A program made the position numbers and the translations under genes. DNA of 64,000 nt, from assembly GCA_977862235.1 (NCBI GenBank), contig OZ374563.1:310001-374000 (forward strand). Reading direction: 5' to 3'. Shown here piece after piece: positions 19,785 to 49,652 of the stretch (position 1 is the stretch's first letter; each line of letters begins with the position of its first letter). The notes beneath the pieces are model-generated. The model saw only the letters and a program-made list of their open reading frames with translations, ran no database searches and had not been told where the DNA came from. This stretch comes from Dudresnaya verticillata (taxonomy: Eukaryota).

Positions 19785-22473
19785 ATTACCATAACAGCTT
19801 GATATGTACGTGAACGGAAAGGAACCTCGCTGGCGTTGCCACATCGTCATTATGTCAAAACCGAGCGACAATAAATCTAGCCTCACAAAGCAAGCCCTAA
19901 CCCCACATAACATATTCAATGACTTGCGGAAATAATTGCTCTTGAAGGGGCTTAAATGTATTCGAATAATAATCTGGAATAATAGATGTATGAATTTCAG
20001 CTACGTCGGTAAAAGTTCTTGTTCTCTCTCCAAAACCATTTATGGCTCTACGCCGCTTCTCCTCCAATTTGCAAGAGCAGCGGTCGACTAGTAAGCTGCT
20101 TGGTGCTAGTCTTCGCTCCAGATATACAACAACTTGTGCATGTAATCCAATTTCTGCGCTGCAGATAGTGTATATCATGTAATCTAATTTACCGCTTGAC
20201 TAAGGCAAGGGACCGTACTGTAGCAATGGGTCCCGTTTTTATTCAAAAAGAATGAAAGAGAACATTCTGTTCTCCATGAAATGAACCCCTCAACAATGTG
20301 GAATACTTCAAAATCTCGTTATTGTTCCAGTTATTAATACCGTACATTCCCATTTGGGACGATTCATGAGATGGAGGCCTCGTATAGGAGTCATGAGAGA
20401 GCACACTTTATCTAGAAAATTTGTAGTCGATTCAATGCAGCTATGGTGCTGGAAGAATTACTGCATGGTTGTTAACGTTGCAGCTGCAATATGCGACAGA
20501 ATGCTAATGTCTTCAGCGCTCTCTTTTGTACTACATGAAGCCAGGGCATGGGCACGGCTCTAACAGACCTTACTAGTTTGTCTTAAAAATAATTGGAGGT
20601 GGCTTAACGAGGGCGTCACCTTCCTCATAGAACGCTGGAGGCTGGAAAATACGCTGCCCGGCGTGTAGCGCTTTCATGTGCATCACTTCACAAGCCAAAT
20701 CTGCACTATTGCCACTTAGCAGCAATATTTCTTTCACGCTCTCCTCAGTCTCATTTTGGCATATGTCTCCGTAAACGGACCTCCTTATGATTAAGTTTTT
20801 GAGAACATTTTCGTCAACAGCTTCTGCCTTCTCACATCCAAGAATGCGTGCGATACTTTCGGAACATCCGTCGGTCTTGGCGACTTCTTCCAAGATCTTC
20901 TGCCGATTTTTGACACCAGACTGGGCCTTGCCGCTCCACTTTTGCATCAGGTTCACTGCAACTACGGCTTTTCCAAGTGAAAGCGGTTCGACGCCTTCTT
21001 GGTATCCCTGAAGTTGATTATCCTTTCCGAGGCAGAAGTCTGTGAGTAGCATGCAGTTACACACCTCGAGATAGTAGCCATCAGGATCACGGAAAAAGTA
21101 CTGCCGTATGATCTTGTCGTCATTGTTACTATCGTTCGTGCCTTGTCCGCCATCGCGACCTCCCTTTGGAACCGAAACGTTTTGCCGGAATGGAATTCCA
21201 AGCTCTCTCAGCATGTGTGGCACCTTGTCTATATCATATGTTTCCAGACTAATGTGGTTCACAATCAAGTCGTCCCCGGTGTGAACGATTGGAACGCCCT
21301 TAATCAGATGCAACTCAACATTACCCATAGTGAACCAGGCCCCATGCTTATCGAAGTCTGGACGGCGGATCTGTTGCAGGCCTATAACATTGGCATAGAA
21401 CTGGGCGCTCCGTCCAACATCACTGACAATAATAGCGATGTGGTTGGCTTTGTAAATATACTTGCCCAAACCTCTCTTTTCGCGATTTTCGTCCCAGTGC
21501 AGGGCAGGATCCAGGTCAGCGTTCCGTGTTGCTTTCGTCATGAGGCTCATTCGCATGACATCAGCTGCATTCTTTAGGTCGTCGACGTACACTTCTCCCG
21601 AGTCAGTATAGTCGAAGAGGCTGAGAACATCCCTCGCATCTCCGGACAAGGTGTCTAGCCTGATACACTTCCCAGTGGGAGGCATCTTTCTCTCACTCGG
21701 ACTCGGCGGCTGCACTGCTCTGATTTCTTCCTCCGGAATATCTTCTACAATGGTATACCCAAAAGAGGTCAGAATGCACTCAAATTCCGAAGCTGAGATT
21801 TGACCATTTCCGTCTAGGTCATACATGCTGATCATCTCCGTCATCTCACTGTCTTCCATGTCGATGTTCATGTTGGCCATGAACTGCTTCAGTTCTGCTG
21901 CAGTCAGATATCCACTGCAATCTATGTCGATAGTCGTGTACATCTGGACGAGTTCTGTCCGAGTGATTTCATTAACGGAGTTACAGCCTTCCTGGAGTAG
22001 CTTTACAAAAGCCGTGAAATCAAGCCCATCGTGACAATCAGAGCCAACGCCGACAAGCATCTGCTTGATTTCCTCTTCACTTCGTTCTTGACCTAGCGTG
22101 TAAAGAGCTTGTTTCAGTTCTTCCGCGCTTATTGTTCCATCCCCATTTCTGTCGAAGTACTTGAACGTTTGACGCCATCCAGCCTTATCAGTTGATTCTC
22201 TTCGAATAAGCCGACTTTCCGCAGCAACAGGTGTCACTCCTAACAATTCGGAGCTCCCCATCTCAACGAAATTTCGTACTCAATACAATCAAACGTTGCA
22301 AACCTTCTAGAGCCTCAGAGAGCACCTTGAGAAATCCGTGTGACGGTTGGTGGTGCACAGCGAAACTTGGGTGATAGTGGTGGGCTTTTATACCTTTTTT
22401 TTCTCTAGGGGAGGGCTTATGGGGAGTGCTTCCCATGACTTCAAAGAACTGATTTACCTGCGGGAGGGATTAC
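19785..22473 (-). repeat. Right arm of the ~2.7-kb inverted duplication
   Basis: Reverse complement of ~9035..11722. Ends are approximate. Confidence 0.9.
20573..22261 (-). CDS. EF-hand (calmodulin-like) + VOC/glyoxalase-I-like fusion protein, 562 aa, intact copy
   Basis: EF loops DRNGDGTISAEE, DIDCSGYLTAAE, DLDGNGQISASE and DYTDSGEVYVDD, plus one degenerate loop. VOC motifs NHIAIIVSDVGRSAQFY, GAWF..VELHL, NHISL and QYFFRDPDGYYLEVCNC. Confidence 0.9.
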   Translation of the reverse strand: MGSSELLGVTPVAAESRLIRRESTDKAGWRQTFKYFDRNGDGTISAEELKQALYTLGQERSEEEIKQMLVGVGSDCHDGLDFTAFVKLLQEGCNSVNEITRTELVQMYTTIDIDCSGYLTAAELKQFMANMNIDMEDSEMTEMISMYDLDGNGQISASEFECILTSFGYTIVEDIPEEEIRAVQPPSPSERKMPPTGKCIRLDTLSGDARDVLSLFDYTDSGEVYVDDLKNAADVMRMSLMTKATRNADLDPALHWDENREKRGLGKYIYKANHIAIIVSDVGRSAQFYANVIGLQQIRRPDFDKHGAWFTMGNVELHLIKGVPIVHTGDDLIVNHISLETYDIDKVPHMLRELGIPFRQNVSVPKGGRDGGQGTNDSNNDDKIIRQYFFRDPDGYYLEVCNCMLLTDFCLGKDNQLQGYQEGVEPLSLGKAVVAVNLMQKWSGKAQSGVKNRQKILEEVAKTDGCSESIARILGCEKAEAVDENVLKNLIIRRSVYGDICQNETEESVKEILLLSGNSADLACEVMHMKALHAGQRIFQPPAFYEEGDALVKPPPIIFKTN

Positions 22474-25103: not shown

Positions 25104-26519
25104 TCAACGCCTCTCCACGCGCACCTTGCACTTGCCGCAGTAAAGCACAGTCGCGGCCATCTGCCTAAACTCAAAGTGGCCGTTGCCAACCTCGGTCAAC
25201 TTGTAGTCCCTGAGCAGCTTGCCCATCAGCGTGCGGAGGATGTGCACATTGTGGTACCTGGCGCCGCACGGCCGCCCACCGAGCTCGTACGCAACGCCGA
25301 GCGGCGCAAAGCCGCGCTGCGTCATGAAGCCCATCTCCTCGGTACCGTCAAAGCGCTCCGGCTTGAACTCGAGCGGGTCGTCCCAGGTGCGCGGGTCGGT
25401 CTGCATGCCGTACGTCGACAGAATCACCGATGCACCCGCCTCCAGCTTCTTTCCCGGCTCATACTCAAAGCCGTCCTCCTCCTGCACGTAGCGCGCGGCC
25501 GGGATCGACGTGTACAGACGCAGCGACTCCTTGAAGATCTTGTCGATGTTGTCCGGCGCCTGGGTCATGTACTTGTACACCGAGTCGTCGGTCTTCGCGT
25601 TGTGGATGAGCATGCCCACGACGGACGTGTGCGTGTTGTTAATGCCGCCCGTGAAGCCGCCCCGCAGCGCGCCCTCCGACTTTGCAAGGTCGATCTCCGG
25701 GTAGCGGCGCACAATGGTGTCGGTGAGGACGTCGACCATGTCCTGCTTGGTAGCGATGTTGCGCAGACGGTCGTTGGCGACGCGCCAGCACCAGTCGCCC
25801 ATGCCGTACACCTCGCTGTCCAGCTTTGGCGACCAGGTGTACGGGATGTTCTGCGTGACCATGCGCAGGGCGTAGTCAAACTCGCCATAGTGGTCCTCGA
25901 ACAGCTGCAGGGTGTTGCGCGAGCCCTCGTCCGGCCACACGCCGTAGCTAGACAGGACCCAGACGTCCCACACGAGCGCGCGCAGCAGACGGCCCACCTC
26001 GACGACGGTGCCCACGTGGTCGGCCATGTACTTGTCGATGAGGTCCTCCAGCATGGGGACCTGCTCGAGGAAGATGTCGCGCGACATGAGATGCGGCTCG
26101 AGCGGGGCATAGTCCTCCCACTTTCCAAACGGGCACACGCCGCCGTCGTAGCGCTCCGGCTGGGCGTTGAGGCACGAGCCCTGGAACCACTTGTCGAACA
26201 GGACGGACGAGCCGAGACCGCGGTGGCTGAGCTCCGTGGAGCAGCGGACCCAGAGATCAAAGTCGCGCGGCATGAAGTTGGCGCCGCCTAGGAAGGTGTA
26301 GTCGCCCTCGATGGACGTGAAGACCTTGCGGAGCACATACGGGTCGACGGCGACCGGGGTGACGATGGAGGCTAGGCGCTCCTGGTTGCTCGACGCCGTG
26401 ACGAAGCGCTTCAGACTGCGCGGGGTTAGGCCCTCCGGGACTGAGGTCTTCGCCATGTGCGCGGCGATCTTCAGCACAAAGCCGATGTCGGCCAGGGAGA
26501 ACGCGGGCGGGACCGGCAT
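25104..26519 (-). CDS. Cytochrome P450, atypical (predicted fatty-acid hydroperoxide-metabolising type), 471 aa
   Basis: K-helix KESLR (ExxR), PERF (FKPERF) and heme Cys motif FAPLGVAYELGGRPCGA. The I-helix GGINNT lacks the acid-Thr pair. Strong GC3 codon bias. Confidence 0.93.
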   Translation of the reverse strand: MPVPPAFSLADIGFVLKIAAHMAKTSVPEGLTPRSLKRFVTASSNQERLASIVTPVAVDPYVLRKVFTSIEGDYTFLGGANFMPRDFDLWVRCSTELSHRGLGSSVLFDKWFQGSCLNAQPERYDGGVCPFGKWEDYAPLEPHLMSRDIFLEQVPMLEDLIDKYMADHVGTVVEVGRLLRALVWDVWVLSSYGVWPDEGSRNTLQLFEDHYGEFDYALRMVTQNIPYTWSPKLDSEVYGMGDWCWRVANDRLRNIATKQDMVDVLTDTIVRRYPEIDLAKSEGALRGGFTGGINNTHTSVVGMLIHNAKTDDSVYKYMTQAPDNIDKIFKESLRLYTSIPAARYVQEEDGFEYEPGKKLEAGASVILSTYGMQTDPRTWDDPLEFKPERFDGTEEMGFMTQRGFAPLGVAYELGGRPCGARYHNVHILRTLMGKLLRDYKLTEVGNGHFEFRQMAATVLYCGKCKVRVERR

Positions 26520-27921
26520 TTTGGCGGGCGGGTGGGGGAGGAGTGGTGGTGGTCTGGGAATGGGAGGGGGATGGGGGGGGGGGGGGGGGGGGGGGGGCGG
26601 GGCGGGTTTAGGGGTGTTCTGCCTTCGTTTTGGGCGAAGGATTGCGGTTCGCGATCGAGGGTGGTGGTGGGTGAATCACCTTGTTCAGAAGGCGCTATCT
26701 ACAGCATGTCACTAGTATGTTGGTTGACTGTATGCCTTTGGGATATCTGCTAAAGTCGCACTTGGTGGCGGTCCAGGACTCGAGGGCGCGGGGAGGTGTC
26801 GTGGGGTGCGGTGATTGTATTTTGGCGACAGAGAAGGGACGCAGGCGCGGGCCGAGTGAGAGAGATTACGCGAGCTGCAAGGGAAAGGGAGAACGACAGC
26901 GTCAGGCGTTTGCCTGTCGGCGGACGCTTTCCGTTCGACGCGGGAGCAGTAGTATGCATTTACTGAGAGCTACCGGACGAGGTCGGGGCGTTTTTGTCAG
27001 TTTCTGAACAGTTTCCTCAGAGAGGGAGAGAGACGCCGCAGCGCCTTACTACAGCCTATGCAGCAAAGCGCGCTTGCAGATCGGACCGCGACGTCGCGCA
27101 TGTTGCGAGTGGCTGCGCCCCAAAGGCCCACGCGCTTGCGACTTTGCGAGTCTCCGCACTGCCTGCAAGACAAGCAGTTCGCCTGGCGGCGAGATGCATC
27201 CGACTGTGTGTCCTTTCGTTTCGGGCACTGCGACTTCCTTGGAGTGCGCACACACACGCGTCATTGACATCCAAAGTCGCGCGCGCGCACACGTGACGCG
27301 CGTGCAAATGTTTGCATCCCGCGCCAGATATTTGCGCAGCTCCGCGCGCAGATCACCCAATCGCGCGCAGCGCGCCCGACGCCGCGCGACGCGCGCGTCG
27401 CTCCCGAACCACGTGACGCCGCGCCCATTGCGCAGTGCTCTGCACGCCCTCGCGATCCGAGTCCGAAATCGCAATCCGCGCGTGTCCCCAACACCAACAC
27501 CGCACCACATCTCCGCCATCCTATCCCGTACCACCGCACCGCCTCATTCGCGCACAATCCGCAAAGCAACGCCATACATCAGCTCATAACAACTGCGAAA
27601 ACAACCGTACTGTAACATGATGCCGCAGGCACGCGCTGCGCAGCCCGACCCGACGCCACACCGACACCGACACCGGCACCGACCCGCGCGGTTCGCTTCC
27701 AGCCTGGCACGAACCGCAACCGCGTTACGTCCATATAAGAAGCACCACACCACCGCACCACTGCACCACTGCGCCGCCGCCCCGCGCACGCTGCGCTAGT
27801 CCGACACTACCAAACTCTGCCCGCACCGCGCACTCCGCCCCCCACCCGCCGCTGCGCAACCCACCCACCCACCGCACGCACGCACGCACGCACCCCAACA
27901 GGCCGCCCCACTAGCCGCACC
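26520..27921. promoter_or_regulatory. Divergent (bidirectional) promoter region between the P450 and the lipoxygenase
   Basis: Head-to-head start codons 1.4 kb apart; TATA-like CATATAAG near 27732; poly-G tract near 26573-26597. Confidence 0.55.
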
Positions 27922-29958
27922 ATGCCGCCCGCCTTCGTCTCCACGTTCGCCGCGCCGTCGCGCGCGGCATCGCCGCCGCTGCGCCGCACGTCGTTCCAGG
28001 GCGGCGCCGTGGCGCCCGCGCCGCGCGCCGCGGCCCCATCGCAGCGCGCGCGCAGCGCGCGCACGCACGCCCCGGCCATGTTCTTCGACTTCTTCAAGCC
28101 GTTTCAGCGCAAGGACCGCGTCGCCCTGCCGCAGAACGACCGCGAGCACGCGACGCAGCGCGCGGAAAGCGTCGCCGCGAACCGCGCAAAGTACGAGTGG
28201 ACCAACGACGCCATCGGCGACGCCTCGCTCATCAAGGGGCTGCCGGACGGCGAGAACCCCAATCTGGGCTGGATTGAGGACCTTGCCTTCATTGTCATCC
28301 GCGTCGCCCTGAACTCCATCTCCAATTCCACGGAAGAGGCCACTGACGCCGTCGAGGAGAACATCCTCGCAGCCGTGTCGGGCCTCGTCTCCCCCGTTCT
28401 GTACAAGCTCGCTACGGCACAGTTTAGCCCGGAAGACGCACGGGAGGCGAATGAAAAGCTCAAGGACATTGTCAGGTCGAGGGCGTCGGGTACCGGCGTT
28501 ACGATCGAAGACTACAAGGACCTCTTTTCCAACATCAAGCTCGATACCGTTGCAAAGCTCGACCAGTTTCTGCGCGACGACATTTTCGGCTGGTATCGCG
28601 TTGCCGGCCCCAACCCGATGCGCCTCACCAAGCTGAACGGTAAGGCCACCGATATGTTTCCAGAGCTCACCAACGACGTTTTCAAAGGCATTGTCGGCTT
28701 TTCCGGAGACACGTTGGAGGCAGCCGCCGCCGACGGCAGGCTCTACTATGTCGACTACCCCGAGTTCGACGGCCTGCCCGTTGGGAAGGACGCCGACGGC
28801 AACCTCAAGGGCAGCTTCAACTATGCGTCGAAATGCCTTCTGGCCGTCCCGCTCAACGTCACCGACCGCCTCACCGTCCTGCCGATCGCCATCCGCTGCG
28901 GCCAAGACTCGACCTTCCCAATGTTCACGGCAAACCCAGACCACACCGACCCGGTCACTTGGCTCGCCTGCAAGCTCACCATCCAGGTGTCGGATTCTGT
29001 CATCCACGAGACGGTGTACCATCTTGGGCGCACGCATTTGATGCTTGAGGTCTTTGTTTGTTCGACGTATCGCACGCTGCCGGAACAGCACCCGCTGCAT
29101 CGCTTGCTCAAGATCCACTTTTACGGGACGGCGTTTATCAACAATGCGGCTGTGTCCTCTCTGATCAACGACAATGGGACGATCGACCAGATCACGGCGC
29201 CGCCCGTGTCGATTTCGCGGCAGATCTCAGCCAGCGCTGTCAACGACAAAAACTTTTCGTTCAATGACTGGATGCCGGACAAGGAGTTGGCGTCACGCGG
29301 GGTGATGGACGGGCAGCTCAAGTATCCGTACCGCGACGACGCGCTGGTGCTGTGGCCGGCGCTGAACAAGTGGGTGCGGGCGTTTGTAACGGCTTACTAC
29401 AAGAGCGACGCGGACGTGGCAGGCGACAACGAACTGGCCAACTGGTGCAAGGAGATTGTGGGGCCCGGGCAGCTGCACGGGTTTGGCGAGACGGCGGACG
29501 GGAGGATTTTGACGGTTGACTACCTGGTGCGGGCCGTGTCCATGGTGATCTTCACGGCGTCGGTGCAGCACGCGGCGGTGAACTTTCCGCAGTCGACGAT
29601 GATGCAGTTTGCGCCGGCGATGCCGCTGGGCGGGTACGCGCCGGCGCCAACGGAGGCCAAGCCGTTTTCGAGCGTGAACGACTGGGTGACGAAGATGATG
29701 CCCAACCTGGAGAAGGCCGAGAGGCAGCTGACTACGGCCGAGCTGATTGGGGTGCTCAAGTATTCGACGTTTGGGGAGTATGGGAAGAGCCTGCAGTTTG
29801 CACCCGACGAGGTGGACGACGCGCTCGAGGAGTTCCAGGAGGACCTGGGGATTATTGGGGCGCGGATTCAGGAGCGGAATGTGGTGGAGAGGCGCGCGGG
29901 ACTGCCGGTTTACAACTATCTAGTGCCGAAGAACATCCCGCAGTCGATTAACATCTAG
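27922..29958 (+). CDS. LOX: Lipoxygenase with N-terminal plastid transit peptide (LOX-A), 678 aa
   Basis: H-x4-H-x4-H-x17-H-x8-H motif (HETVYHLGRTH...HPLHRLLKIH), QHAAVNF, YPYRDDA, WLACK and C-terminal PQSINI (iron-binding Ile). The first 52 aa (MPPAFV...) are rich in Ala/Ser/Pro/Arg. Confidence 0.97.
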   Translation: MPPAFVSTFAAPSRAASPPLRRTSFQGGAVAPAPRAAAPSQRARSARTHAPAMFFDFFKPFQRKDRVALPQNDREHATQRAESVAANRAKYEWTNDAIGDASLIKGLPDGENPNLGWIEDLAFIVIRVALNSISNSTEEATDAVEENILAAVSGLVSPVLYKLATAQFSPEDAREANEKLKDIVRSRASGTGVTIEDYKDLFSNIKLDTVAKLDQFLRDDIFGWYRVAGPNPMRLTKLNGKATDMFPELTNDVFKGIVGFSGDTLEAAAADGRLYYVDYPEFDGLPVGKDADGNLKGSFNYASKCLLAVPLNVTDRLTVLPIAIRCGQDSTFPMFTANPDHTDPVTWLACKLTIQVSDSVIHETVYHLGRTHLMLEVFVCSTYRTLPEQHPLHRLLKIHFYGTAFINNAAVSSLINDNGTIDQITAPPVSISRQISASAVNDKNFSFNDWMPDKELASRGVMDGQLKYPYRDDALVLWPALNKWVRAFVTAYYKSDADVAGDNELANWCKEIVGPGQLHGFGETADGRILTVDYLVRAVSMVIFTASVQHAAVNFPQSTMMQFAPAMPLGGYAPAPTEAKPFSSVNDWVTKMMPNLEKAERQLTTAELIGVLKYSTFGEYGKSLQFAPDEVDDALEEFQEDLGIIGARIQERNVVERRAGLPVYNYLVPKNIPQSINI

Positions 29959-30927
29959 AGGCAGTATTGGGGATTGGAGAAAGTTTGTCATTGTTGGTAG
30001 GTACAGAACAGATCAATAGTCTACCATAAAGAAAGGCACGCCATCACCGTGTGCAACTATTTGCAGTTGTCAAGTCACACCAAAGCTAACGCGTTTCTAC
30101 TGCTGAGATATTCAATGGACGCTAAACCAGCTATGCCGTACACTTCAAGAGTGCAATAAAACGTCTTTGGGTGGTAAAGACATGAGTTTGTTCAGCGACC
30201 GCAACTGTAGGCCTACTGCTTGCTGCTATTATGCCGAAATGCCGACACAGAGTTTGCACAAAGCTTTATATCACATACGGCACTCTGCGTAGCGGATTAA
30301 CGAAACCGACCTTGGAATGGTGAAGTAAAAAGTAGTCTTTTAAGATTACTTTCGCAAATCTACGCACTGTGCCAGCGGAGCGAACTCTATACTTTGCTGT
30401 ACGAGCAAACAAGCAGCTGACTACTCCAAAACTACCGAACCGCGGTCTTCCAAGATAACATTGCCTCTTCCGAACATGTCCAGCGCCTCTTCTTCTGTTG
30501 AGGACATGGTCGCTGGCGCCTCACGTCACGGGTCAGGCACCCCAGATGGCACCCTGGCACGCTGTCACCAAACCTTCCGGAGACGACAGCCCTTTTTCCG
30601 GGCTTCCAAAATCACGGCGCATTTAGGCCTTTTGCAAAAGCAACGTGAAACGGGCTTCTGATTGGTTGTTACAAACCGCCTCCATGGTCTATATGGCTTA
30701 CAAGTGTTGTGCTGGAATTGGCGGTTATAACAGGAACGGCCAAGTGGAACGATCTGATTGGACCACATGGATGCACGTGGTATGGCATGGAATGGTGTTG
30801 GTATGACTCGCACTGTACTCCACAAGTACACATGAACGTGCCATGCAATGTGCTGATGGCGTCCGAGTTGGTACTGCAGGGACTTGCGCTACGTGGAGCC
30901 TGACTTGTGATATCAGCAGATGCAGTT

Positions 30928-31088
30928 GTTGTGCGGCCGACACGTTGGTTTACAGTTGGCACGTAGCTGTTGTGCGGCCGACACGTTGGTTTACAGTTGG
31001 CACGTAGCTGTCGTGCGGCCGACACGTTGGTTTACAGTTATCACGTAGCTGTCGTGCGGCCGATACGTTGGTTTACAGCTGCCACGTA
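30928..31088 (+). repeat. 41-bp tandem repeat x4 within the copia LTR (present in all four LTR copies)
   Basis: GTGCGGCCGA recurs at 30931, 30972, 31013 and 31054. Confidence 0.9.
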
Positions 31089-32505
31089 GGCAAATCTGGG
31101 TGATTACGTGGTCAATGATCCAAGTTGGATATTCATGGACGGACTTGAGCTGGTAAGTGCGGCCACGTGGTGTGCAGTGTTGTCCGACAGCAGCCATGCG
31201 GGGACACTCGATACTTTCACGTTCCCGCCCAAAGTTGGAGTACATATGGGTGGCAGGAAATGCGGTCGCAAGAGGGATTGCTGATGTCAGCAGTTAGCAA
31301 CACTGGTGTGCAAGTTCCCGCCCATTTTGGTGGCGGATGTGAGTGTGCTGAGAGCATGATTTGGTAGATTTAATTGCTTTACTTTTTCCCGCCCATTTGA
31401 TGATAGGGACTTTGGGCGTATCTTTAATGATTTGTTTTGTTTGTGTTCACGCAGCAACTCATCCGAAAAGCTGATATAAGCCTTGTCGGATGGTCGACTG
31501 CAGTAAACGAAGTCAAGCGACTTCCATTTCTCATCTTGTTCAACTTCAACCTCTCCATATTCCTTTACAGGTTATGGGCCCAGAAGGTCGACCTACGCAG
31601 ACTTCATCGCTTCGCTGCAACCTTCTTCCTTTTTCTTTTCATTCTTGATACTGTCCGGTCCCGTCCTGGCCTGTCCTGTCTGCTTGTGTCCTGTCCTGTC
31701 GGCTTGTGTCCTGTCCTGTCTGCTTGTTGTCTGTTGAAAGTGGTCCCTATCCCACTGTGTTGGCTTGTGTCTCTGATTTTGTGAGAGAGTTCTCGAGGCT
31801 CTCGTCCGCTGTTGTCTTGGTCCGTGAGCTTGCTGAGAGGTTGAGTGTTGTGCGTGGTGACTCTCGTTAAGTCAGGACCTCGTTGGCCTAGGGGAGCAGC
31901 CTCCAGTAAGATCCAGAACCTTGACACGGTTGGGCCTAGTTCCATTCCTGCAAGAGACTGGACCTGTTCGTGTGGTGAACACTCGTTTTGAGTTAGTACC
32001 CATAAGGTGGACGTCTCGTAAGGATTGCATACTTCGTGTCTGTGTGCGCACGACACGAAAGGGCTGCTGAAAGACGCATTTCACCCGGAGAATCATATCC
32101 GGGGGCCAGGAGTCCGACTCCTAGGGGTGACTAGGTAGAACCTGGTGCCAGAACATCCCGCGTCAAAAAGACGTTCAACTATCAAGAATCAACTTTTCAA
32201 CTTCAAGTTTCAACTTTTCTTCTTCAGTCCAGGTGATCCCATCATCACCTGAGAGTTTCATTACTCCAAGCGTGGGAGCTACTTGGCAAAGTGTGCTCCG
32301 CTTGTGACTGTATTATATTACCGACGTGTTCGACACATTTCTCAGTTTCGTCGTCACGTCTTCGTTGTGTGAGCTGCACTGCTCTGCTTAACACGACTAT
32401 TACCCTCTGGGCATCGACACTGTTGCACTAACAGCACTGCCCCAAGTTCACCAAGCTTTCTAAAACTATTCAAGTCATCTCTTCTCACCATCAGTCCCAA
32501 CAGCT

Positions 32506-35500
32506 ATGACTGATACCGAAGCCGAGATGGATACTTCGAGCGGGGTCAAGATACCCCGTTTCCACGGCAGGAGAGGTGACGACTACAGTCTCTGGCGTCA
32601 TCGCCTTCGTGCCGCATGCCGCATCAAAGGGGTTTGGAATGTTGTCCACACCTCAAACGACACACCGAGCAGCTCACAGTCAACTGGAGAGGCCTCAGCG
32701 GATACTTCCATTCTTCACGCCAGAACCTTGGCCAAACGTGAGAAGGCTTGCGGGATCATTATCTCCGCACTTGGTGATGCTCCGCTTCGTGTCGTTATGG
32801 AGGTTGATGATGACCCCAAACGCATGCTGGAGCTATTGGACTCGCGCTATGCGTCCAGTCGAACCGTATCCCGTATCGCCGTACAGACCAAGCTATTCCG
32901 TATGACGTACACCGGTCAGAATATGTCCAACTATGTCGACCAGTACACGTCACTGTTCGCCCAACTCGACCGCATGGGCAACGACTCGGCGATACCGGAG
33001 ACACATAAGGCACCTATGCTGCTTGCTTCCATTGATCCGTCCTGCCACCTGGAGTCAACAGCTGCAGCTCTTCGCACCAAAGATGCTGCTGAGCTGACTT
33101 GGGACTACGTCGCAACCACGCTGATCGATGAGTACAACGCCAAAGATTCTCATGGATCAAACGCAGGTGGGAGATCCAGTAAGTCGAAGAGTCGTCGGAA
33201 GAAGAAAAAGAAGTCCGCGTCGTCAGGTTCTCGCCAGCAACACAACCCGCTGGATGACAACGACGACTCCGATGACTCTTCTGATATTGAATCCACCGTC
33301 CGTGCGTTGGCGGTTGCACTCAAGTCCGCCAAGCAGGCTCACTCCACCCCGAACCGGCACCTTCACTGTGATGTTTGCGACAAGGATGGACACACCGCGG
33401 ATCGATGCTATCTAAATCCGGAAAATCCTAACAACAAGCTTCCTCCAAAGGTGCGACAGATGTTCACCAACCAGGGCAAAAAGGGCAACGCCAACTCGGC
33501 GGTAGCTGCATCTGGTAAGAATAATGGTAAATCTGCAAAGGTAGAAATCGCCGGTGCATCGGTTGAGATGACTACTGTTGTTCCTCCGAACGACCAAGGA
33601 ACGTATGCCGACAGTGGAGCAACTGTGCATTGCTTCCACTCAATGACTTCTTTTGTACCGAGCTCAGTATCGCGCTGCGAAAAGCGTACTGTAGTGCTTG
33701 CGGACAAGTCGTCTGTCACCTCAGACCTATGTGGAGATGTGATTCTGCCGTTTGAGCATGCCAATATTCGGCTCAAGAAGGCCCTCTTCATCCCGCATAT
33801 GGGATACAATCTTGTCTCTACTGGGCGTTTGGCAGATAAAGGAATTGAATCCCACTTTCGCCGCTTGGACGTGCGCTTGGTACTCGACTCTGATGGGTAC
33901 TATATTGGATCCGGTGTTCGCGATGCGAGTTCTGGAATGTACATGCTACCAGAACCCGAGCCGCACACTTCGGAGGAGCAACTACTGGCTGTCCCCAGCA
34001 CGCAGCAAACTACTGAGCTCTGGCATCGACGTCTTGCCCACATTAATTTTCGGGACTTGGCCAAAGTGCACGAGCATGTTGAGGGTGTTCCGGAGTTGGG
34101 CTCCACTCATGAAGTGTGTCGGGCTTGTAGGCTTGGGAAAGCACACAAACAATCATTCCCAGGGCACTTCCGCCCGGCCAAAGCTGTCGGTGATCTCGTG
34201 CATTCCGACATTGTGGGTCCAATCCAGATCTCCTTTCCCGATCGTTTCCGGTATGCCACGACGTTTCTGGATGATAAATCCCGTTTCTTGGTCGTCGCAT
34301 GTATGAGAAGTCGCCGTATGTTGAGTGCAGCATTTGATCAAGCTTCAGCAAAGTTTATCGAGCTTGGAGGAGCGGAAATAACAAAACTCCACTCAGACGG
34401 GGCTCAGGAGTATTTGGCTTTGCAGAAAGATTTGGGAGGAGTTGGAGACAGTGGCAAATCCTTCTCCCCACCTTATACTCCGGAGCTCAATGGAATCGCG
34501 GAAAGGGTGAACCGAACCATGGTGGAAGCTGCCCTGACTTTGCTGATCCAGGCTGATCTACCGGGATGTTTGTGGCCGTTTGCACTGAAGCATGTCAACT
34601 ACGTGCGCAATCGGGTACCACACTCAACCGTTGGGGCTACGCCATACTCGGTCATGACAGGTGATGTTCCTGATTTAAAACATTTAAGAGTGTTTGGATG
34701 TGCTGCATATGTCCTAAGGCTCCCACGCGGATCCAAGTTCGAGTCTCGTGCACTTGAGGGGGTGCACTTGGAGACTCTAGAGCATGGGATCTACAGGATA
34801 TTGGTCACTGGCGGTGACGGTATACCTCGTGTGGTTGAGTCGCGGCATGTCACATTCGACGAGTCCAAATTCCCGGGTGCTCCAAGCCTGTTGGAATATG
34901 GGCAGGACGAGGCAGATTCGGATGAAGATTACGAGTCTAACTCAGAGGCCTCTATTTGCAACTCGGACTCTGATGACGATGTATCGCTTGGTAACTTTGA
35001 GGATGAAGAGGATGCAATTGAAGTTGACACACCTTCTTCACCTCCACTACCTCCATCAGAACCCAGCTCATTCGAATCTGATGACACGGCTGAGGAAGAA
35101 AACGTCTCTGACAGTCCTCCGGCTGGTGTGAGTTCAGATCCAGAACGCCAGCAACAGAGTCGATATCCTCGTCGCCAACGTCGCCAGACGTCGAAATGGT
35201 TTATGGCAAGCTCTGCACAAGCTGAACAACAGGTTGCCCTCACAACGGGAGATGAGCCAACTCTTCGAGAGGCCATGTCTGCCACTCCGGAGGAGCGCGG
35301 GTTGTGGCAATCTGCCATTGATGATGAGTTCGCATCCTTGGAATCCAAAGGCACTTGGGTCCGTGATGACAGTCCCGGTGCACAGCCGCTTCCAACGCAC
35401 GCCGTGCTGAAAGTTAAACGCAAGTCCGACGGGACCGTCGAGCGCTTCAAAGCGCGGGTCGTCGCTGGTGGAAACTTCCAGACGTATGGTGAAGACTACA

Positions 35501-36828
35501 TGGAAACATACGCCCCAGTTGTGTCGTTCTCGCTGGTGCGCATGTTCCTATACTTGGTACTGTGTTTGAACCTGTTTGTTGCACAGCTAGACGTGAAGAC
35601 GGCTTTCCTGAATGGTGATCTGGCAGAACACGTGTGGGTAATGTCACCGCGTGGGATTCCTGGAAGGGAATCTCTCTGTTACAAACTTCTGAAAGCTATG
35701 TATGGGCTAAAACAGGCTCACCTAGCTTGGCACACCAAGCTGTGTGGTGACCTTGCTAGGATGATGTTTGAGGAATTGCCAAGTGCACCTTGCGTGTTTC
35801 GTCGCAAATCCAAGTCTTCTGGATACGCATACATCTTGGTGTACGTTGATGACTTGCTCATCCTCGCGCCCACAAAGGCGGAGAGAGACGCCATTGTTAA
35901 GGAGCTGCAGGGCCTCTACGATCTACGGCTGTCTGAAGGGGTTGACCTCTTCCTCGGAGTCGAGCTTGGATGGAAGCTAGACTCTGATGGCAGATTTGTG
36001 TCCCTCAAGATGACTCAACAGGTCTACACGGAAAGTGTTCTTCGTCGATTTGGACTTCAGAACTCTAAGCCGGCTTGTACGCCGATGGTTGAGTCTTTCT
36101 TCACTGGACTTGCCGCCGAAGAGGACAAGGCCGTCGTGTCGGTTGAGACGTACCAGCAGATGATCGGGTCACTTCTGTACTTGGGGCTTCGCACAAGGCT
36201 GGATATTTTGGCCTCTGTGCTTATCCTCGCACGGTTCCAGAAGGCTCCAACTGCGTACTGTCACCGTGGTGTAAAGAGGGTTCTGCGATATCTTCGAGGC
36301 ACTCACAAGCATGGAGTTACGTACCAGTCCGGAACCACTCGTATCCAAGCTTATGTGGACGCTGACTATGCCGGTGACACCACAGACCGAAAATCTATGT
36401 CTGGTTACATGGTGAAACTGGGAGATGCAGTGTGTATTTGGGGATCCAAGAAGCAGTCAACTGTTGCTCTCTCAACTTGCGAGTCGGAGTACTATGCAAT
36501 GACTCTGGCTGCGAAAGAGACGGTTTGGGTCACGCGAGTGCTGAAGGAGGCCGATTTGAACGTCGAAGGCCCGGTTCCATTGAGATCAGACAACCAGTCT
36601 GCCATCAATTGGGCTACTGGAGAACGCTGTCCGTCTGGTCGTGCCAAGCACATCGACGTTCGTGTACACTTCATTCGCGAACTTGTCGCCGACTCTGTTC
36701 TGGAAGTGGTGTATGTGCCGTCAGAAGACAACGACGCGGACTTGCTGACAAAGCCACTCGGGCCCACTTTGCTCAATAGGATTCTACCAAGGGTTGGACT
36801 TGGAGGAGCCATCGAGGAGGAGTGTTGA
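32506..36828 (+). CDS. Copia gag-pol polyprotein, 1440 aa
   Basis: Zinc knuckle CDVCDKDGHTADRC, protease ADSGA, integrase WHRRLAH/CRAC plus DDE core, RT YVDDLL, RNase H YVDAD/KHID, in the order PR-IN-RT-RH. Confidence 0.97.
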   Translation: MTDTEAEMDTSSGVKIPRFHGRRGDDYSLWRHRLRAACRIKGVWNVVHTSNDTPSSSQSTGEASADTSILHARTLAKREKACGIIISALGDAPLRVVMEVDDDPKRMLELLDSRYASSRTVSRIAVQTKLFRMTYTGQNMSNYVDQYTSLFAQLDRMGNDSAIPETHKAPMLLASIDPSCHLESTAAALRTKDAAELTWDYVATTLIDEYNAKDSHGSNAGGRSSKSKSRRKKKKKSASSGSRQQHNPLDDNDDSDDSSDIESTVRALAVALKSAKQAHSTPNRHLHCDVCDKDGHTADRCYLNPENPNNKLPPKVRQMFTNQGKKGNANSAVAASGKNNGKSAKVEIAGASVEMTTVVPPNDQGTYADSGATVHCFHSMTSFVPSSVSRCEKRTVVLADKSSVTSDLCGDVILPFEHANIRLKKALFIPHMGYNLVSTGRLADKGIESHFRRLDVRLVLDSDGYYIGSGVRDASSGMYMLPEPEPHTSEEQLLAVPSTQQTTELWHRRLAHINFRDLAKVHEHVEGVPELGSTHEVCRACRLGKAHKQSFPGHFRPAKAVGDLVHSDIVGPIQISFPDRFRYATTFLDDKSRFLVVACMRSRRMLSAAFDQASAKFIELGGAEITKLHSDGAQEYLALQKDLGGVGDSGKSFSPPYTPELNGIAERVNRTMVEAALTLLIQADLPGCLWPFALKHVNYVRNRVPHSTVGATPYSVMTGDVPDLKHLRVFGCAAYVLRLPRGSKFESRALEGVHLETLEHGIYRILVTGGDGIPRVVESRHVTFDESKFPGAPSLLEYGQDEADSDEDYESNSEASICNSDSDDDVSLGNFEDEEDAIEVDTPSSPPLPPSEPSSFESDDTAEEENVSDSPPAGVSSDPERQQQSRYPRRQRRQTSKWFMASSAQAEQQVALTTGDEPTLREAMSATPEERGLWQSAIDDEFASLESKGTWVRDDSPGAQPLPTHAVLKVKRKSDGTVERFKARVVAGGNFQTYGEDYMETYAPVVSFSLVRMFLYLVLCLNLFVAQLDVKTAFLNGDLAEHVWVMSPRGIPGRESLCYKLLKAMYGLKQAHLAWHTKLCGDLARMMFEELPSAPCVFRRKSKSSGYAYILVYVDDLLILAPTKAERDAIVKELQGLYDLRLSEGVDLFLGVELGWKLDSDGRFVSLKMTQQVYTESVLRRFGLQNSKPACTPMVESFFTGLAAEEDKAVVSVETYQQMIGSLLYLGLRTRLDILASVLILARFQKAPTAYCHRGVKRVLRYLRGTHKHGVTYQSGTTRIQAYVDADYAGDTTDRKSMSGYMVKLGDAVCIWGSKKQSTVALSTCESEYYAMTLAAKETVWVTRVLKEADLNVEGPVPLRSDNQSAINWATGERCPSGRAKHIDVRVHFIRELVADSVLEVVYVPSEDNDADLLTKPLGPTLLNRILPRVGLGGAIEEEC

Positions 36829-37933
36829 GGACATGGTCGCTGGCGCCTCACGTCACGGGTCAGGCACCCCAGATGGCACCCTGGCACGCTGTCACCAAAC
36901 CTTCCGGAGACGACAGCCCTTTTTCCGGGCTTCCAAAATCACGGCGCATTTAGGCCTTTTGCAAAAGCAACGTGAAACGGGCTTCTGATTGGTTGTTACA
37001 AACCGCCTCCATGGTCTATATGGCTTACAAGTGTTGTGCTGGAATTGGCGGTTATAACAGGAACGGCCAAGTGGAACGATCTGATTGGACCACATGGATG
37101 CACGTGGTATGGCATGGAATGGTGTTGGTATGACTCGCACTGTACTCCACAAGTACACATGAACGTGCCATGCAATGTGCTGATGGCGTCCGAGTTGGTA
37201 CTGCAGGGACTTGCGCTACGTGGAGCCTGACTTGTGATATCAGCAGATGCAGTTGTTGTGCGGCCGACACGTTGGTTTACAGTTGGCACGTAGCTGTTGT
37301 GCGGCCGACACGTTGGTTTACAGTTGGCACGTAGCTGTCGTGCGGCCGACACGTTGGTTTACAGTTATCACGTAGCTGTCGTGCGGCCGATACGTTGGTT
37401 TACAGCTGCCACGTAGGCAAATCTGGGTGATTACGTGGTCAATGATCCAAGTTGGATATTCATGGACGGACTTGAGCTGGTAAGTGCGGCCACGTGGTGT
37501 GCAGTGTTGTCCGACAGCAGCCATGCGGGGACACTCGATACTTTCACGTTCCCGCCCAAAGTTGGAGTACATATGGGTGGCAGGAAATGCGGTCGCAAGA
37601 GGGATTGCTGATGTCAGCAGTTAGCAACACTGGTGTGCAAGTTCCCGCCCATTTTGGTGGCGGATGTGAGTGTGCTGAGAGCATGATCTGGTAGATTTAA
37701 TTGCTTTACTTTTTCCCGCCCATTTGATGATAGGGACTTTGGGCGTATCTTTAATGATTTGTTTTGTTTGTGTTCACGCAGCAACTCATCCGAAAAGCTG
37801 ATATAAGCCTTGTCGGATGGTCGACTGCAGTAAACGAAGTCAAGCGACTTCCATTTCTCATCTTGTTCAACTTCAACCTCTCCATATTCCTTTACATCTT
37901 CTTCGACCAAACGGCCCAGCCTCACATTCAGAT

Positions 37934-38308
37934 TCACTTTCCGTCCTTCCCGCCTTTCGCGGCAGCGCGCATATGAGTGACTTGCAGCCAAGCAGCCGCA
38001 GCAACAAGCCCAAACAAGCCCAGCGTGAAGAGCCAGCGGCACCACGGGTCCATCACGCTGTACAGAATGACAAAGCCGGTGGAGAGGATGCCGGTGGCCG
38101 CCAGGCACACGTTGCGGCGGTGGCGCAAGTCGGCCATGAACAGGTAGAGCTGCATCATGCGCGCGTCGTGCGCGCGCTGGGCGTTGCCGCTAGTGATGAG
38201 GTAGGGCAGCACTAACGGAACCGCGGCGAGCACCGCGGATACCGCCGCTATCGCCGGGTTTGTGCTGCCGGCTATAAGCGTGATCACCTTCACGAAAGCG
38301 GCATCCAT
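37934..38308 (-). CDS. Small multi-pass membrane protein, 124 aa (possibly MAPEG-like)
   Basis: GC-rich ORF from ATG 38308 (MDAAFVKV...) with 3-4 hydrophobic segments and a basic tail. The family assignment is speculative. Confidence 0.65.
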   Translation of the reverse strand: MDAAFVKVITLIAGSTNPAIAAVSAVLAAVPLVLPYLITSGNAQRAHDARMMQLYLFMADLRHRRNVCLAATGILSTGFVILYSVMDPWCRWLFTLGLFGLVAAAAWLQVTHMRAAAKGGKDGK

Positions 38309-39792
38309 GGTTTCGAGTGTGGTGGAGAGCAGCGGGTCTGCGCGCGCTGGGAGATGATGTTGCGGCGCAGGGCAGACTTGGCGCAGTGTTTCGCTGCGAC
38401 TGCGGCTCGCATTCTTAACGAGGCGTTCCTCGGTGCGCGATGCGCGATGCAAGTGCGATGGGCACGGAGTGGGTGTGCCACGCTATGCAGCTGTACTTTC
38501 GAATGGCGCGAAAATTGCGCTCGTGGCTCACATGTACTGTGAATCACCTTGTTCAGACATACTGTACTGTTGTGTACGTACATTACGCCAAGCGCGAGGC
38601 CCCCAATAAAGCTCGAATTGTCGTCCGTAGCCGGTCGACACGCGCGCGCGGCGTGAGAGTGGTGTACAATCACCGCTCTGCGGGCACGGCGCGCAGGGTC
38701 GCGGAACGCGGGGAAAGGGGCGCGAGCGGGGCGAAGCGGGGCGCGAGCGGAGCGAGGCGGGGCGCGAGGGGAGCGAGCGGGTCAGAGAGGCGGGCGAGGT
38801 TTATCGAAGCAAGGGAAGAGGGCTACGGCAGACCACCGCGGCTGACGCAACGGACGTTCTCGTCAACGCTGCTTACTCTTCTACTTCGATCGTGCTCTCT
38901 CGGAGCGGCGGTGGTCTGCAATGGTCGGCGGGGCTTGAAGTAGCCCAACCAGTTGCAGTCGGGCGCGCGCGTCGCGCGCGGACGGCGCGTTGGTCGCCGA
39001 CGGCGGGAGCACTGTAAGGTATCTTACAGTGCGACTCTGCGACACAGATGGGTCCAAATCGACACTCCCCCCTGTCGCAGAACGGTCGTCGGCGATGCGC
39101 GCATATCTAATTTGCATTAGACATAGGCGGGAAGAAAAGGCGGGCGCAGGGCGGCAATTTCCGGGCCAAAAATCTGGCACCGAAATCGTCGGGTAGAAAT
39201 TGCACACTATGATAATCATGAGGCGGGCAGATAAATCGGGCCCAGGGCGGCAATTTCGGGGCGGGAAATCGTGCCCCAAATGGTCGGGTAGAAAATATCA
39301 ACTGTGATAATCATCAGGCGGGATATAAGAGGCCACTGGGTGTGCCTTCCTTCCCCTCCCCTGCCCTGCTCACGAACCAACCTGACCGCGCAGCACCCTA
39401 TGGCGTCCTGGTTCGCTTGTGGACTCGTCTTCACTCAAATGGTAGTTTGCTACCACTCCTTCTTGCCGATTGACCCATGCGGCGGGCTACAAGACACATT
39501 TGTTGTGCCGGTCCGCAGCTTCGCGCTCAACCTTGCGGGGGAAACCCCAATGGGAGAGGTCCAATTCTCTACGCCATCCAAACGTCGTATGGGTCGGGAC
39601 CCAAAAGGCTTCGTGCCGGGTCCCAGTTGCAAGGTGGGGGGCTTCAACCATCTTGGACGCTTGGGGTGTTTGCAACGTCTTCTTCTTGTTCGTGGGTATG
39701 CGAAACAATGCGAGACTTGCGAAAATGCCTCAGAATACTGCCAGTTTCTTTCTTCTTTGCGCGAACGGTAATGCGGCCATCGTGCGTCTCTG

Positions 39793-42700
39793 CTATTTGC
39801 GAACGATCCACTGCTCCGGCTGAATGTTTAGCGAACCGGAAACAACAACTTCTCGCAACTGTGCTTGACTCATCATCTTCGTCAAGCCATCAGCTATGTT
39901 GGAGCTACTGCGGACAAACCCGATGTCCGAGATCGTCTTATCGCGGAACCCTTCGCGTGCCGCAGCGATGTCAAGCATCATCCTCTTCTCAGATGTTCTG
40001 GAGCCCTTGGATATGACGTCGAAGAGACTCTTGCTGTCGGTTAGAAGTTGGACCGGGACAGTCTTGTTGAGAAGAACTCCAAGCTCACCTGCGACGGCGA
40101 TGGCGATGTCGAACATGTCGGAGAATGCTATAACTTCCCCGGACATTGCTGAGCGAGTCACCCGTCTTGACTTGTACGACTTGAAGCTGACCGGGACTGA
40201 AGATCCACTGTCGTCAGTGAGAAGTACAACGTGGCCAAGCTGGGAACTGAGATCCCTGTTGTTAGCGAACGAGGCATCAGAGAATCCAACCACCTTAATG
40301 GTGTCTGCCTTCAACCTTCGGACGCGTAGGCGGACTCGATGGTCAACCGCGTACGTTACAGCCTTGTTGAGACGTCGGATATTGGCTTGCCTGTTCTTGA
40401 AGAAGTCTTCCTCTGTGACTTGTGCGAGCTGAGATACTTCGAAAAGGCAGTCAGGGCGTGAGTTAGACAACCACGCCAGCTTCATGCGCACGGACCGGAA
40501 TTCGCGAAAGGTTGCATCTGGATGCAGACATTCCAGCTTGCGGAGGTACGCGTTCTGGTCGATGTACATCGTGCCATCCTTATCGCGATCGATGACAAAT
40601 CCTGTGAATTCTGCGGGAAGCTTGGACTCGTCCGTCATCTCGAAGCGTGCGTTGGTTTTCTGCGAGATTTTTCGAAACCTTTCGCTTCCGCAGCGGATGA
40701 GGTCGTCAACATAGCACCCACTCAAGCCTTGTAGTACTCCTTCACTCAGCAGGTAGTACAGTGCGGGATCAATGCGCATCGGCTTCATTCCCAACTCATG
40801 GCGGTGGTGCTTGTCAAGCGTGATATGCCACAGATCTCCTGCATCGCATAGTCCATATGGCGGCTTCAAGAGTTGAAGACACTGGTCAGGCTCAAGTTCA
40901 AACTCTGCAGCGGGCTTGCCGATGAACACATCTCGTGCCAATGGTTCGGAAGCTTGAAGGTAGGCTTGCCTGATATCTGCTGCCCAGATGTCAAAGCCAA
41001 AGATGCCTGCCAACGCAAGAAGCAGTCTTACTGACTGAGGTTGCAAGGTTGTCGTGGAGTGCACCATCATGTCCTTCATCTTGTCTCGATGGCCTCCAAT
41101 GACGTATCGGGCCTTATACTTGATCTTGCCGTCCAGCGAGGACTTGATCGCGAGTACAAATCTGCCGGGAAGAACATTCGCGTCTCTTGGGATGTCCTCC
41201 TTGAGTATCACCTTGAACGTACCGCGCTGCATGAGGTTGCGGAGTTCTACCTTCTTGGCTTCAGTCATCTCGTAGTGCTTGGCTCGTTCATCGTTCGGAT
41301 CAAGCACTTCCGTCATGAATATCCCATGGTCTTCCATCTTCGGGGACTTGAACGGGTTCAGACTTTTGTCGATGTCTGCCATGAAGGTTTGTGCAAGAAG
41401 TTCGGGGGTGAAGTATGGTTTCACCTGCGTGACGCTGAAGGGCCGAGCGGGACTTCCTTCGATGTCTCGGATGAACACAAGCTTCTTGTAGTAGTCAACT
41501 GATTCTACTTCGAAGGGTCCGAGCCATTCTCCAATGCGGTTGGCAATGGTCTTCTCGCGAAATACGAGCACGCGATCACCAGGCTCATAGCTACGCTCGG
41601 AAGCAGGTGGGACAGCGTAGTGAAGTGCTCGTCTGACCTTGAGCTCAGCCATCCGCTTCTTCATCTCCTCACGAGCAGCTGTAGCAATAGAAGCGCGTTC
41701 AGCTACCGTGGGTCGAGGTCCGGGCTCTTCAGACAAGGTGGCAATTTGTGGAAATTCTCCGAAGACAAGAGCAGAAGGTACTAGGCCTTCCGGCCCAAGG
41801 GTGTCGTTCATTGCCTTCACAGATGAAGCTAGAAGAATCTCCTTGCCTGCATGCGGGTAAGCATGTCGGAGCTTGCGGTATGTCGTTCGCAGCGGCTCAT
41901 GGTACCTCTCGCACAGTCCAAGACTGGAGTGGGCTTCAATGCCGGTGCGGTTGACTTCAACGTTGTTGACTTGGGCTATGTGGATGAACTGTTGTCCAAA
42001 CTGTGAGCCTTGGTCAGTGAGAATCCTGTTCGGAAGTCCACAGTAGACGAGAGCCCAGCATGACATCAAGGTTGTCCAGATCGTCTGCGTCGACACATCA
42101 GGGAGGAATCGTGCGGCGCTGAACTTCGTGGCTTCGTCAACGATGTGGAGAACAGGCACTGATTCAAGTGACATGATGTCAATGAGGATGAGTTCATTGA
42201 ATCTTAAGTCTTCGGCACCAAACGATACACGGAAACGATGAGGAGCGTGTTGTATTCGTTGACACGGGTCGCAACGTTTCGCGATGTCTTTGAGCGTTTC
42301 CAGTGTTTGAGGTGTAGCTTCCTCTGGACGTGCTCGCTTAATAAGGTTGTACAGCTTCTGTGCGCTTACATGGAAGAACTGTCGGTGAAGTCTTCGCAAC
42401 TGTGGACGCGTGAAGTAGCTGGCTGTCGAGAAGTGCATTTGAGCATACAAGTGGTTGCTTCCAGAGCGGGTCAACGGCACCTGCCATTCATTGAGGTGCA
42501 CCAGCTTCCCTTCTTTGTCGGTGTGTCTCGTACGCTTGATGAGTTGGTTCGAGACAGTGCATGGAGTCAAGGAGTGTTTGTCCAGTACGTCCATGCCAAG
42601 AAGTGCGGGGATGTCGGCTTCGACAATGTCCATTTCAACGTCGATGTTCCTTATGCCTGGTGGGGTCAACAGCGGTATGGAAATGCGACCCAGTGACTCG

Positions 42701-43026: not shown

Positions 43027-43032
43027 AAATCC
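42984..43032 (-). other. Predicted -1 programmed ribosomal frameshift signal
   Basis: In-phase G_GAT_TTT heptamer (43032-43026), a 6-nt spacer, then a 9-bp stem GGCGACAAG/CTTGTCGCC. Confidence 0.75.
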
Positions 43033-49115: not shown

Positions 49116-49652
49116 AGGCAGTATTGGGGATTGGAGAAAGTTTGTCATTGTTGGTAGGTACAGAACAGATCAATAGTCTACCATAAAGAAAGGCACGCCA
49201 TCACCGTGTGCAACTATTTGCAGTTGTCAAGTCACACCAAAGCTAACGCGTTTCTACTGCTGAGATATTCAATGGACGCTAAACCAGCTATGCCGTACAC
49301 TTCAAGAGTGCAATAAAACGTCTTTGGGTGGTAAAGACATGAGTTTGTTCAGCGACCGCAACTGTAGGCCTACTGCTTGCTGCTATTATGCCGAAATGCC
49401 GACACAGAGTTTGCACAAAGCTTTATATCACATACGGCACTCTGCGTAGCGGATTAACGAAACCGACCTTGGAATGGTGAAGTAAAAAGTAGTCTTTTAA
49501 GATTACTTTCGCAAATCTACGCACTGTGCCAGCGGAGCGAACTCTATACTTTGCTGTACGAGCAAACAAGCAGCTGACTACTCCAAAACTACCGAACCGC
49601 GGTCTTCCAAGATAACATTGCCTCTTCCGAACATGTCCAGCGCCTCTTCTTC

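Follow-up and report, generated by a model that had tools for sequence, protein, structure and literature searches.

A head-to-head lipoxygenase and P450 gene pair in Dudresnaya verticillata, also linked in related red algae, a candidate two-step route to oxylipins

A stretch of 64,000 nucleotides from Dudresnaya verticillata (assembly GCA_977862235.1, contig OZ374563.1, positions 310,001 to 374,000 of the forward strand; hereafter the window) contains a cytochrome P450 gene and a lipoxygenase (LOX) gene arranged head-to-head. Their positions and main features are listed in Table 1. The first-pass annotation had described a complete LOX and a P450 diverging from about 1.4 kb of DNA, with a codon usage unlike that of the neighbouring genes, and both descriptions hold. 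The G+C content at third codon positions (GC3) is 0.907 in the P450 and 0.841 in the LOX; in the seven other long open reading frames (ORFs) of the window, the second LOX copy excluded, it ranges from 0.520 to 0.580. Among these seven, the EF-hand/glyoxalase gene occurs in two inverted copies; the rest are a Sel1-repeat gene, one unassigned ORF, and retroelement frames. Because of this composition, the contrast is no sign of co-regulation, and high GC3 was rejected as proof of it. The intergenic region has a GC content of 0.64, and its GC skew changes sign across the region; a repeat scan of it gave low-complexity matches only. Its geometry suggests a bidirectional promoter. The neighbours of the pair are EF-hand/glyoxalase, Sel1-repeat, and copia-type retroelement genes, and among the window ORFs of at least 200 aa, no further gene of the pathway was recognised. 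A biosynthetic gene cluster consists of three or more linked pathway genes. The P450 and the LOX are a two-gene pair, and the earlier term "gene cluster" is not retained.

Table 1. Features of the P450/LOX locus (window positions).
Feature	Position	Strand	Remark
P450 gene	25104-26519	-	single uninterrupted, intron-less ORF, 471 aa
P450 heme-binding loop, F404-C418	25266-25310	-	insertion of 4 residues; thiolate ligand predicted to be Cys418
P450 I-helix groove, G291-H297	25629-25649	-	Asn294 replaces the usual Asp/Glu, and Asn295 the usual Thr
Intergenic region	26520-27921		1,402 bp from start codon to start codon; P450 and LOX head-to-head
LOX gene	27922-29958	+	uninterrupted ORF, 678 aa
Putative transit peptide for the plastid, LOX residues 1-52	27922-28077	+	predicted from sequence character only
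Ala410, stereo-determinant ("Coffa") site of the LOX	29149-29151	+	placed by alignment
Second LOX copy, without P450	47110-49115	+	frameshift in the transit-peptide region; open from the second ATG at 47235

The P450 scored 45.3 bits against the Pfam p450 model (cut-off 22.8), and the superfamily motifs ExxR, PERF, and the heme cysteine Cys418 are present. The fold of its AlphaFold2 model (pLDDT 78.9, pTM 0.83) matches that of CYP175A1 (Z 28.3, rmsd 3.8, 363 aligned residues). The best of the fold matches listed were ordinary monooxygenases, and all of them were at 10-18% identity. Structures of CYP74, CYP152, and prostacyclin synthase (PGIS) were not among the best 50-60 matches listed, which excludes nothing. 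Among 7,995 candidates scored, the relatives formed 16 clusters at 42-74% identity, after which the similarity fell to E 1e-5; a family profile search against 1.84 billion representatives gave 6 proteins at E < 1e-30. Judged by these searches, the P450 family is small and isolated, and its named members are red algal. The database labels of its members are generic, such as "81D11" and "flavonoid 3'-monooxygenase".

Motifs were counted in an alignment of 22 family members with 28 canonical P450s and 8 sequences of a sister family described below. The acid-alcohol pair of conventional monooxygenases is absent from the family. Asn294 is present in 22/22 members and Asn295 in 21/22; the canonical P450s contain Asp/Glu (19/28) and Thr (22/28) at these two sites. 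Arg286 and His297 are each kept in 21/22 members. The heme ligand Cys418 is invariant (22/22), with Ala replacing the usual Gly at Cys+2 in 19/22. The insertion in the heme-binding loop has 4 residues in 19 members and 7 in the other 3; the shorter form, which equals the loop of the CYP152B1 peroxygenase in size, is also common to all 8 sister-family sequences.

Three known families were considered for the P450 and rejected. CYP152 peroxygenases were the best single-sequence match in the PDB (E 1.4e-9) and also the NCBIfam match, with similarity only in the C-terminal ~120 residues. With the NCBIfam model NF053744, however, the score was 36.2 bits, where the cut-off is 600. CYP152 peroxygenases have an Arg-Pro pair at the I-helix site, where the window P450 has Asn-Asn. 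In CYP74 enzymes, the insertion lengthens the heme-binding loop by nine residues (PMC10813956); the P450, with 4 residues (7 in some relatives), is therefore not a CYP74. The atypical nature of the P450 seen in the first-pass annotation stands, and it is of the kind known from peroxide-rearranging P450s. The I-helix Asn of the CYP74 clan is found in the P450 as Asn294/Asn295. It is unspecific, since an Asn over the heme has also been reported for PGIS, plant allene oxide synthase (AOS), and the fungal linoleate diol synthases (LDS) and epoxyalcohol synthases (EAS) (PMC13049297). A fungal LDS was rejected because the P450 is a stand-alone ORF with N-N-x-H and R-x-C, where LDS have NQxQ and H-x-C (PMC13049297).

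Two further observations concern the P450 family. In the B'-C region (residues 93-130; 26130-26243, minus strand), Cys93, His99, and the Cys of a C-P-F/Y-G motif are near-invariant, and they form a possible disulfide or metal site. One member, P0012, comes from a transcriptome of Rhodochaete pulchella, outside the florideophytes; it could extend the range of the family or be contamination.

The LOX scored 169.2 bits against the Pfam Lipoxygenase model (cut-off 23.6). Its best PDB match is the Pseudomonas aeruginosa LOX (E 6e-88), and it is of the Pseudomonas type; the PLAT domain was not found. The iron ligands His367, His372, His550, Asn554, and the C-terminal Ile678 are intact. The relatives of the LOX formed 31 clusters at 36-69% identity, followed by bacteria. 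The closest species-named relatives are from Gracilaria domingensis, Agarophyton chilense, Gracilariopsis chorda, and Gp. lemaneiformis, whose LOX2 (AWH98081.1) is 55% identical to the window LOX. The nearest named relatives of both proteins are red algae, in agreement with the algal setting proposed earlier, and a florideophyte red alga is accordingly the most likely origin of the window. The LOX is probably targeted to the plastid: residues 1-52 are unconserved and rich in Ala, Ser, Pro, and Arg, and several relatives are annotated from the position equivalent to Met53. At the stereo-determinant site of LOX enzymes, Ala leads to S and Gly to R hydroperoxides. By this rule, the window LOX, with Ala410, is predicted to make S-hydroperoxides. 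The site is occupied by Ala in Gracilariopsis, including Gp. lemaneiformis LOX2, and by Gly in A. chilense.

The two genes are also linked in related algae. One Gp. chorda contig of 112,517 bp holds both the P450 PXF40672.1 and the LOX PXF40671.1, whose accessions are consecutive. In G. domingensis, the P450 KAI0559272.1 and the LOX KAI0559269.1 share a contig of 143,844 bp, although accession numbers may not follow gene order. Four further P450/LOX pairs have the same source and identical contig sizes (4,672, 5,275, 6,388, and 7,802 bp), which leave 1.1-4.4 kb beyond the two genes. These six are exact contig-size matches among 22 P450 × 38 LOX records; 0.07 were expected under 5% jitter, and 0/200,000 jittered sets gave 4 or more. 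With the window included, the seven pairs represent about five lineages, and the linkage holds across P450s that are 43-57% identical to that of the window. Head-to-head orientation is established for the window pair only; in the relatives, linkage alone is observed. Linkage in related algae was found in Gp. chorda, in G. domingensis, and on four small contigs, but it is not universal. A metagenome scan with the P450 family alignment gave 4 loci, of which only one (L001) contained a true member, and a LOX was found in 0/4. In GTDB, 15 loci matched, weakly and in the C-terminal part only (25-43% identity), and none of them is a family member.

For the seven pairs, the tree of the P450s and that of the LOXs are congruent (Mantel r 0.93; the LOX tree is a quick tree). 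The coefficient was rejected as proof of co-evolution, since shared ancestry alone gives it. A clade of Gly-type LOXs (A. chilense P0032, P0034, P0038) lies outside the clade of G. domingensis and Gracilariopsis. P0038, the sole Gly-type LOX with a linked P450, has as its partner the long-branched P450 P0018, which likewise lies outside that clade. This placement, known from one pair, is consistent with a joint duplication of P450 and LOX and subsequent retuning. At the 90% level, the LOX2 of Gp. lemaneiformis and the P450-linked LOX of Gp. chorda are members of one cluster.

Outside the P450 family, the best single-stretch match among the 1.84 billion representatives was P0165 (E 6e-25). This is a P450-LOX fusion of 912 aa, with Pfam p450 at residues 36-381 and Lipoxygenase at 623-733, and its LOX iron-ligand motifs are apparently intact. 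It belongs to a sister family of 8 P450s, in whose I helix Ser takes the place of the Thr, and the residue at the acid site is non-acidic and in most cases hydrophobic. Profile comparison of the two families gave 99.9% probability over 326 columns. They also form one clade (FastTree 0.947, SH-aLRT 97) in trees that have long branches and do not include CYP74 and CYP5164 sequences. Coupling by fusion, which the first-pass annotation had mentioned for coral AOS-LOX and fungal dioxygenase-P450 systems, has a P450-LOX instance in the sister family, with another LOX lineage. A search for further P450-LOX fusions, over 4,776 candidates with lengths of 501-1,596 aa, gave only P0165 and two stand-alone LOXs. 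The stand-alone LOXs (P0309 and P0310) are related to the LOX of P0165 and belong to a very divergent LOX group. A giant-virus origin of the sister family and P0165 had been guessed from composition. It is unsupported, as four IMG/VR scans gave no relative and the pattern matches L020 and L021 are due to chance. Beside the red-algal and sister families stands a bacterial-looking P450 group (P0195, P0251, P0271, P0298, P0302), which has no acid-alcohol pair and has Asn at the Thr site in 3/5 members. A plasmid search for kin of this group gave only generic P450s (24-27% identity among the best rows listed), and 0/401 genomes matched at 1e-60; the Pfam LOX control matched nowhere. No member of the group was placed beside a LOX by these searches.

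These features suggest that the P450 probably acts on the LOX hydroperoxide independently of a reductase and rearranges it. In the proposed pathway, the LOX, probably in the plastid, would oxygenate a wound-released C20 or C18 polyunsaturated fatty acid, for example to 12S-hydroperoxyeicosatetraenoic acid (12S-HPETE); this step is suggested by the intact iron ligands together with Ala410. The hydroperoxide would bind to the ferric heme of the P450, where the I-helix Asn pair may position it and help to cleave the O-O bond. The heme-oxo species could then hand its oxygen to a neighbouring carbon, in the manner of the P450 domains of fungal LDS, and neither NADPH nor a reductase would be needed. 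The first-pass annotation had listed four product classes: allene oxides, epoxyalcohols, vicinal diols, and aldehydes. Vicinal diols fit best and the others less. A diol product takes up about two thirds of the weight given to action on the LOX hydroperoxide; overall, its chance is put just short of even.

The diol product would also connect the pair to an enzyme of Gp. lemaneiformis. Its hydroperoxide isomerase was reportedly described as an activity by Gerwick in 1991 and by Hamberg and Gerwick in 1993. In this alga, a 12-LOX and a separate hydroperoxide isomerase are reported to convert 12-HPETE to 12R,13S-dihydroxyeicosatetraenoic acid (12R,13S-diHETE) (PMC4728519, PMC7700177). The P450 family is a candidate for this isomerase, which acts after a 12-LOX in a genus with an adjacent LOX-P450 pair and is known, in these sources, from activity only. 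A. chilense and G. vermiculophylla form 8-HETE (8-hydroxyeicosatetraenoic acid) as well as 7,8-diHETE upon wounding (PMC6410328, PMC3244454), and an 8R-LOX/isomerase route has been proposed for G. vermiculophylla (PMC7496315). The residues at the LOX stereo site, Ala in Gracilariopsis and Gly in A. chilense, match this known chemistry. PMC11507377 reports no candidates of AOS, hydroperoxide lyase (HPL), or divinyl ether synthase (DES) for the red algal genomes that it discusses.

Several known systems show similar features. The fungal 7,8-LDS and 5,8-LDS likewise combine a dioxygenase with a self-sufficient P450 that has an I-helix Asn (PMC13049297); for the window P450, self-sufficiency is proposed. 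For the fungal enzymes, an intramolecular hydroxylation of the hydroperoxide to the diol has been proposed (PMC13049297). However, the two functions are encoded by separate genes in the window, a non-heme-iron LOX replaces the heme dioxygenase, and no close sequence kinship between the P450s was shown. The pair may work like a split, LOX-based version of the fungal diol synthase. The CYP74 and brown-algal CYP5164 clans (AOS, HPL, DES, EAS, and hydroperoxide bicyclase) share with the P450 an atypical I-helix groove and a heme-loop insertion, and the predicted action on LOX products without a redox partner is a further likeness. They differ from it in the insertion length (9 residues in CYP74), and among the sequences compared, the P450 groups with the sister family and the bacterial-looking clade. 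With CYP152, the heme loop of equal length is shared. In the coral and cyanobacterial catalase-like AOS-LOX fusions, a LOX is likewise genetically coupled to a hydroperoxide-metabolising hemoprotein, whereas in the window the LOX is coupled to a P450, through divergent adjacency.

Other explanations of the pair were weighed. The P450 might take the LOX hydroperoxide by CYP74-like homolytic chemistry, which would yield epoxyalcohols, allene oxides or ketols, aldehydes, or carbocyclic oxylipins. Homolytic AOS and PGIS use the same I-helix Asn (PMC13049297), epoxyalcohol- and allene-oxide-derived products have been found in several red algae (PMC12843491), and an epoxide intermediate has been proposed for 5R,8S-diHETE (PMC7496315). 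However, the named lineages with the linked pair, the Gracilariales, are known in the sources cited for vicinal diols, and the P450 does not have the CYP74 motif lengths. This outcome, which is counted within the action on the LOX hydroperoxide, is considered unlikely. A peroxygenase or an ordinary reductase-dependent monooxygenase of the same lipid pathway, hydroxylating for example a fatty acid or HETE, is less probable again. The CYP152 matches and the ordinary monooxygenases among the best fold matches favor such an enzyme, and the conserved Arg286 could anchor the fatty-acid carboxylate. The CYP152 score, however, is far below its cut-off, the fold matches are all distant, and the acid-alcohol pair that activates O2 is absent in every family member. 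The genes may also be neighbours by inheritance only, through an old joint transfer or microsynteny, with unrelated functions. The congruence of the trees is expected of any two orthologues, L001 does not have the arrangement, and 21/27 LOX records on long contigs have no matched P450; moreover, the P450 was lost from the tandem copy. Yet the linkage persists among widely diverged P450s, the changes in the P450 active site point to peroxide chemistry, and the sister family holds a fusion with a different LOX lineage. Mere inheritance is rated the most improbable of these explanations.

The proposal that the P450 rearranges the LOX hydroperoxide also has evidence against it. The four small pairs were inferred from equal contig size, not from DNA sequence, and the six matches are non-independent, as in two cases a pair of P450 records falls into one 90% cluster. 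Linkage is partial: 6/13 P450 and 6/27 LOX records on contigs of at least 3.5 kb were matched, and the remainder (7/13 and 21/27) were unmatched partly since only some clusters were expanded. At L001 (7,003 bp), a GMC oxidoreductase lies 1.5 kb upstream of a family P450 in the same direction, and there is no LOX. Among the relatives retrieved, no member of the P450 family bears the name of A. chilense or Gp. lemaneiformis. The fusion P0165 is a single record on one 7,348-bp contig (ENA), its LOX is distant kin (23% identical to the window LOX over 259 residues), and the sister grouping may be exaggerated by long-branch attraction. The P450 has no evident transit peptide, unlike the LOX, and the two enzymes may therefore occupy different compartments. 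The tandem copy of the LOX in the window travelled without a P450. The sterol monooxygenases CYP7A1 and CYP8B1 carry an Asn at the same I-helix site, which is thus undiagnostic. In LDS and EAS, the I-helix Asn was reported to be dispensable (PMC13049297). Some red-algal LOXs are multifunctional and perform downstream chemistry alone (PMC11507377).

The tandem duplication of 19.2 kb starts at the LOX (27791-44843 and 47021-64000). The segments 30000-44843 and 49157-64000 are 100.000% identical over 14,844 bp, and the first ~400 bp of the mature LOX coding sequence differ by ~11% between the two copies. The duplication may be either a very recent unequal crossover, which made a chimeric LOX, or an assembly mis-join. 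The second LOX copy, overlooked in the first-pass annotation, has 36 substitutions, most of which fall within ~120 residues of the mature N-terminus; H399Y, G297R, and L311R are among the 36. The copy may be a pseudogene or a cytosolic isoform. In this copy, the expected place of the P450 is occupied by a palindromic fold-back element of ~1 kb (45225-46238), which is MITE-like, lies beside remnants of the intergenic region, and is related to 38614-39065 and 57771-58222. The duplicated DNA also contains an intact copia-type retrotransposon (30496-37896 and 49653-57053) with long terminal repeats of 1,074 bp that are 99.9% identical and an open polyprotein of 1,440 aa. A second RVT_2/integrase element (39793-45164, minus strand) has overlapping gag-like and pol frames. 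On the other side of the pair, a fusion gene of EF-hand and glyoxalase/VOC domains is present in two inverted copies (20573-22261, minus strand; 9487-10932, plus strand), which are 94.6% identical over 2.7 kb. One copy of this calcium-regulated glyoxalase-like protein lies 2.8 kb from the P450.

In summary, sequence comparison indicates that the pair is real and conserved, and that the P450 is outside CYP74, CYP152, and LDS. No description of a red-algal LOX-P450 pair, or of a cloned red-algal hydroperoxide isomerase, was found in the full-text searches made; subscription papers, genome-paper supplements, and P450 nomenclature lists may already name the family. A review of algal P450s, in the part available, names KfAOS and CYP5164B1 and no red-algal oxylipin P450. 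A broader proposal, tentative and somewhat more doubtful than the diol product itself, is that the P450 family is the missing red-algal hydroperoxide isomerase. It would represent a separate origin of oxylipin P450s that are self-sufficient, in addition to CYP74, CYP5164, and the fungal fusions, and would have stayed beside its LOX across florideophyte lineages. The pair might have been duplicated and retuned, with S-type LOXs leading to 12,13-diols and R-type LOXs to 7,8-diols, and it might derive from a wider lineage of LOX-associated P450s that includes the P450-LOX fusion. Red algae make many oxylipins, and the diol-making isomerase was described in 1991-1993 as an activity. With a specific gene and public accessions named (PXF40672.1 with PXF40671.1 of Gp. 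chorda), this three-decade-old enzyme question becomes testable. If the proposal is true, a new P450 lineage would join the few that run on fatty-acid peroxides, and the P450 would provide a cofactor-free catalyst for stereospecific diols. It would also explain the wound-activated defence lipids of the farmed agar seaweeds.

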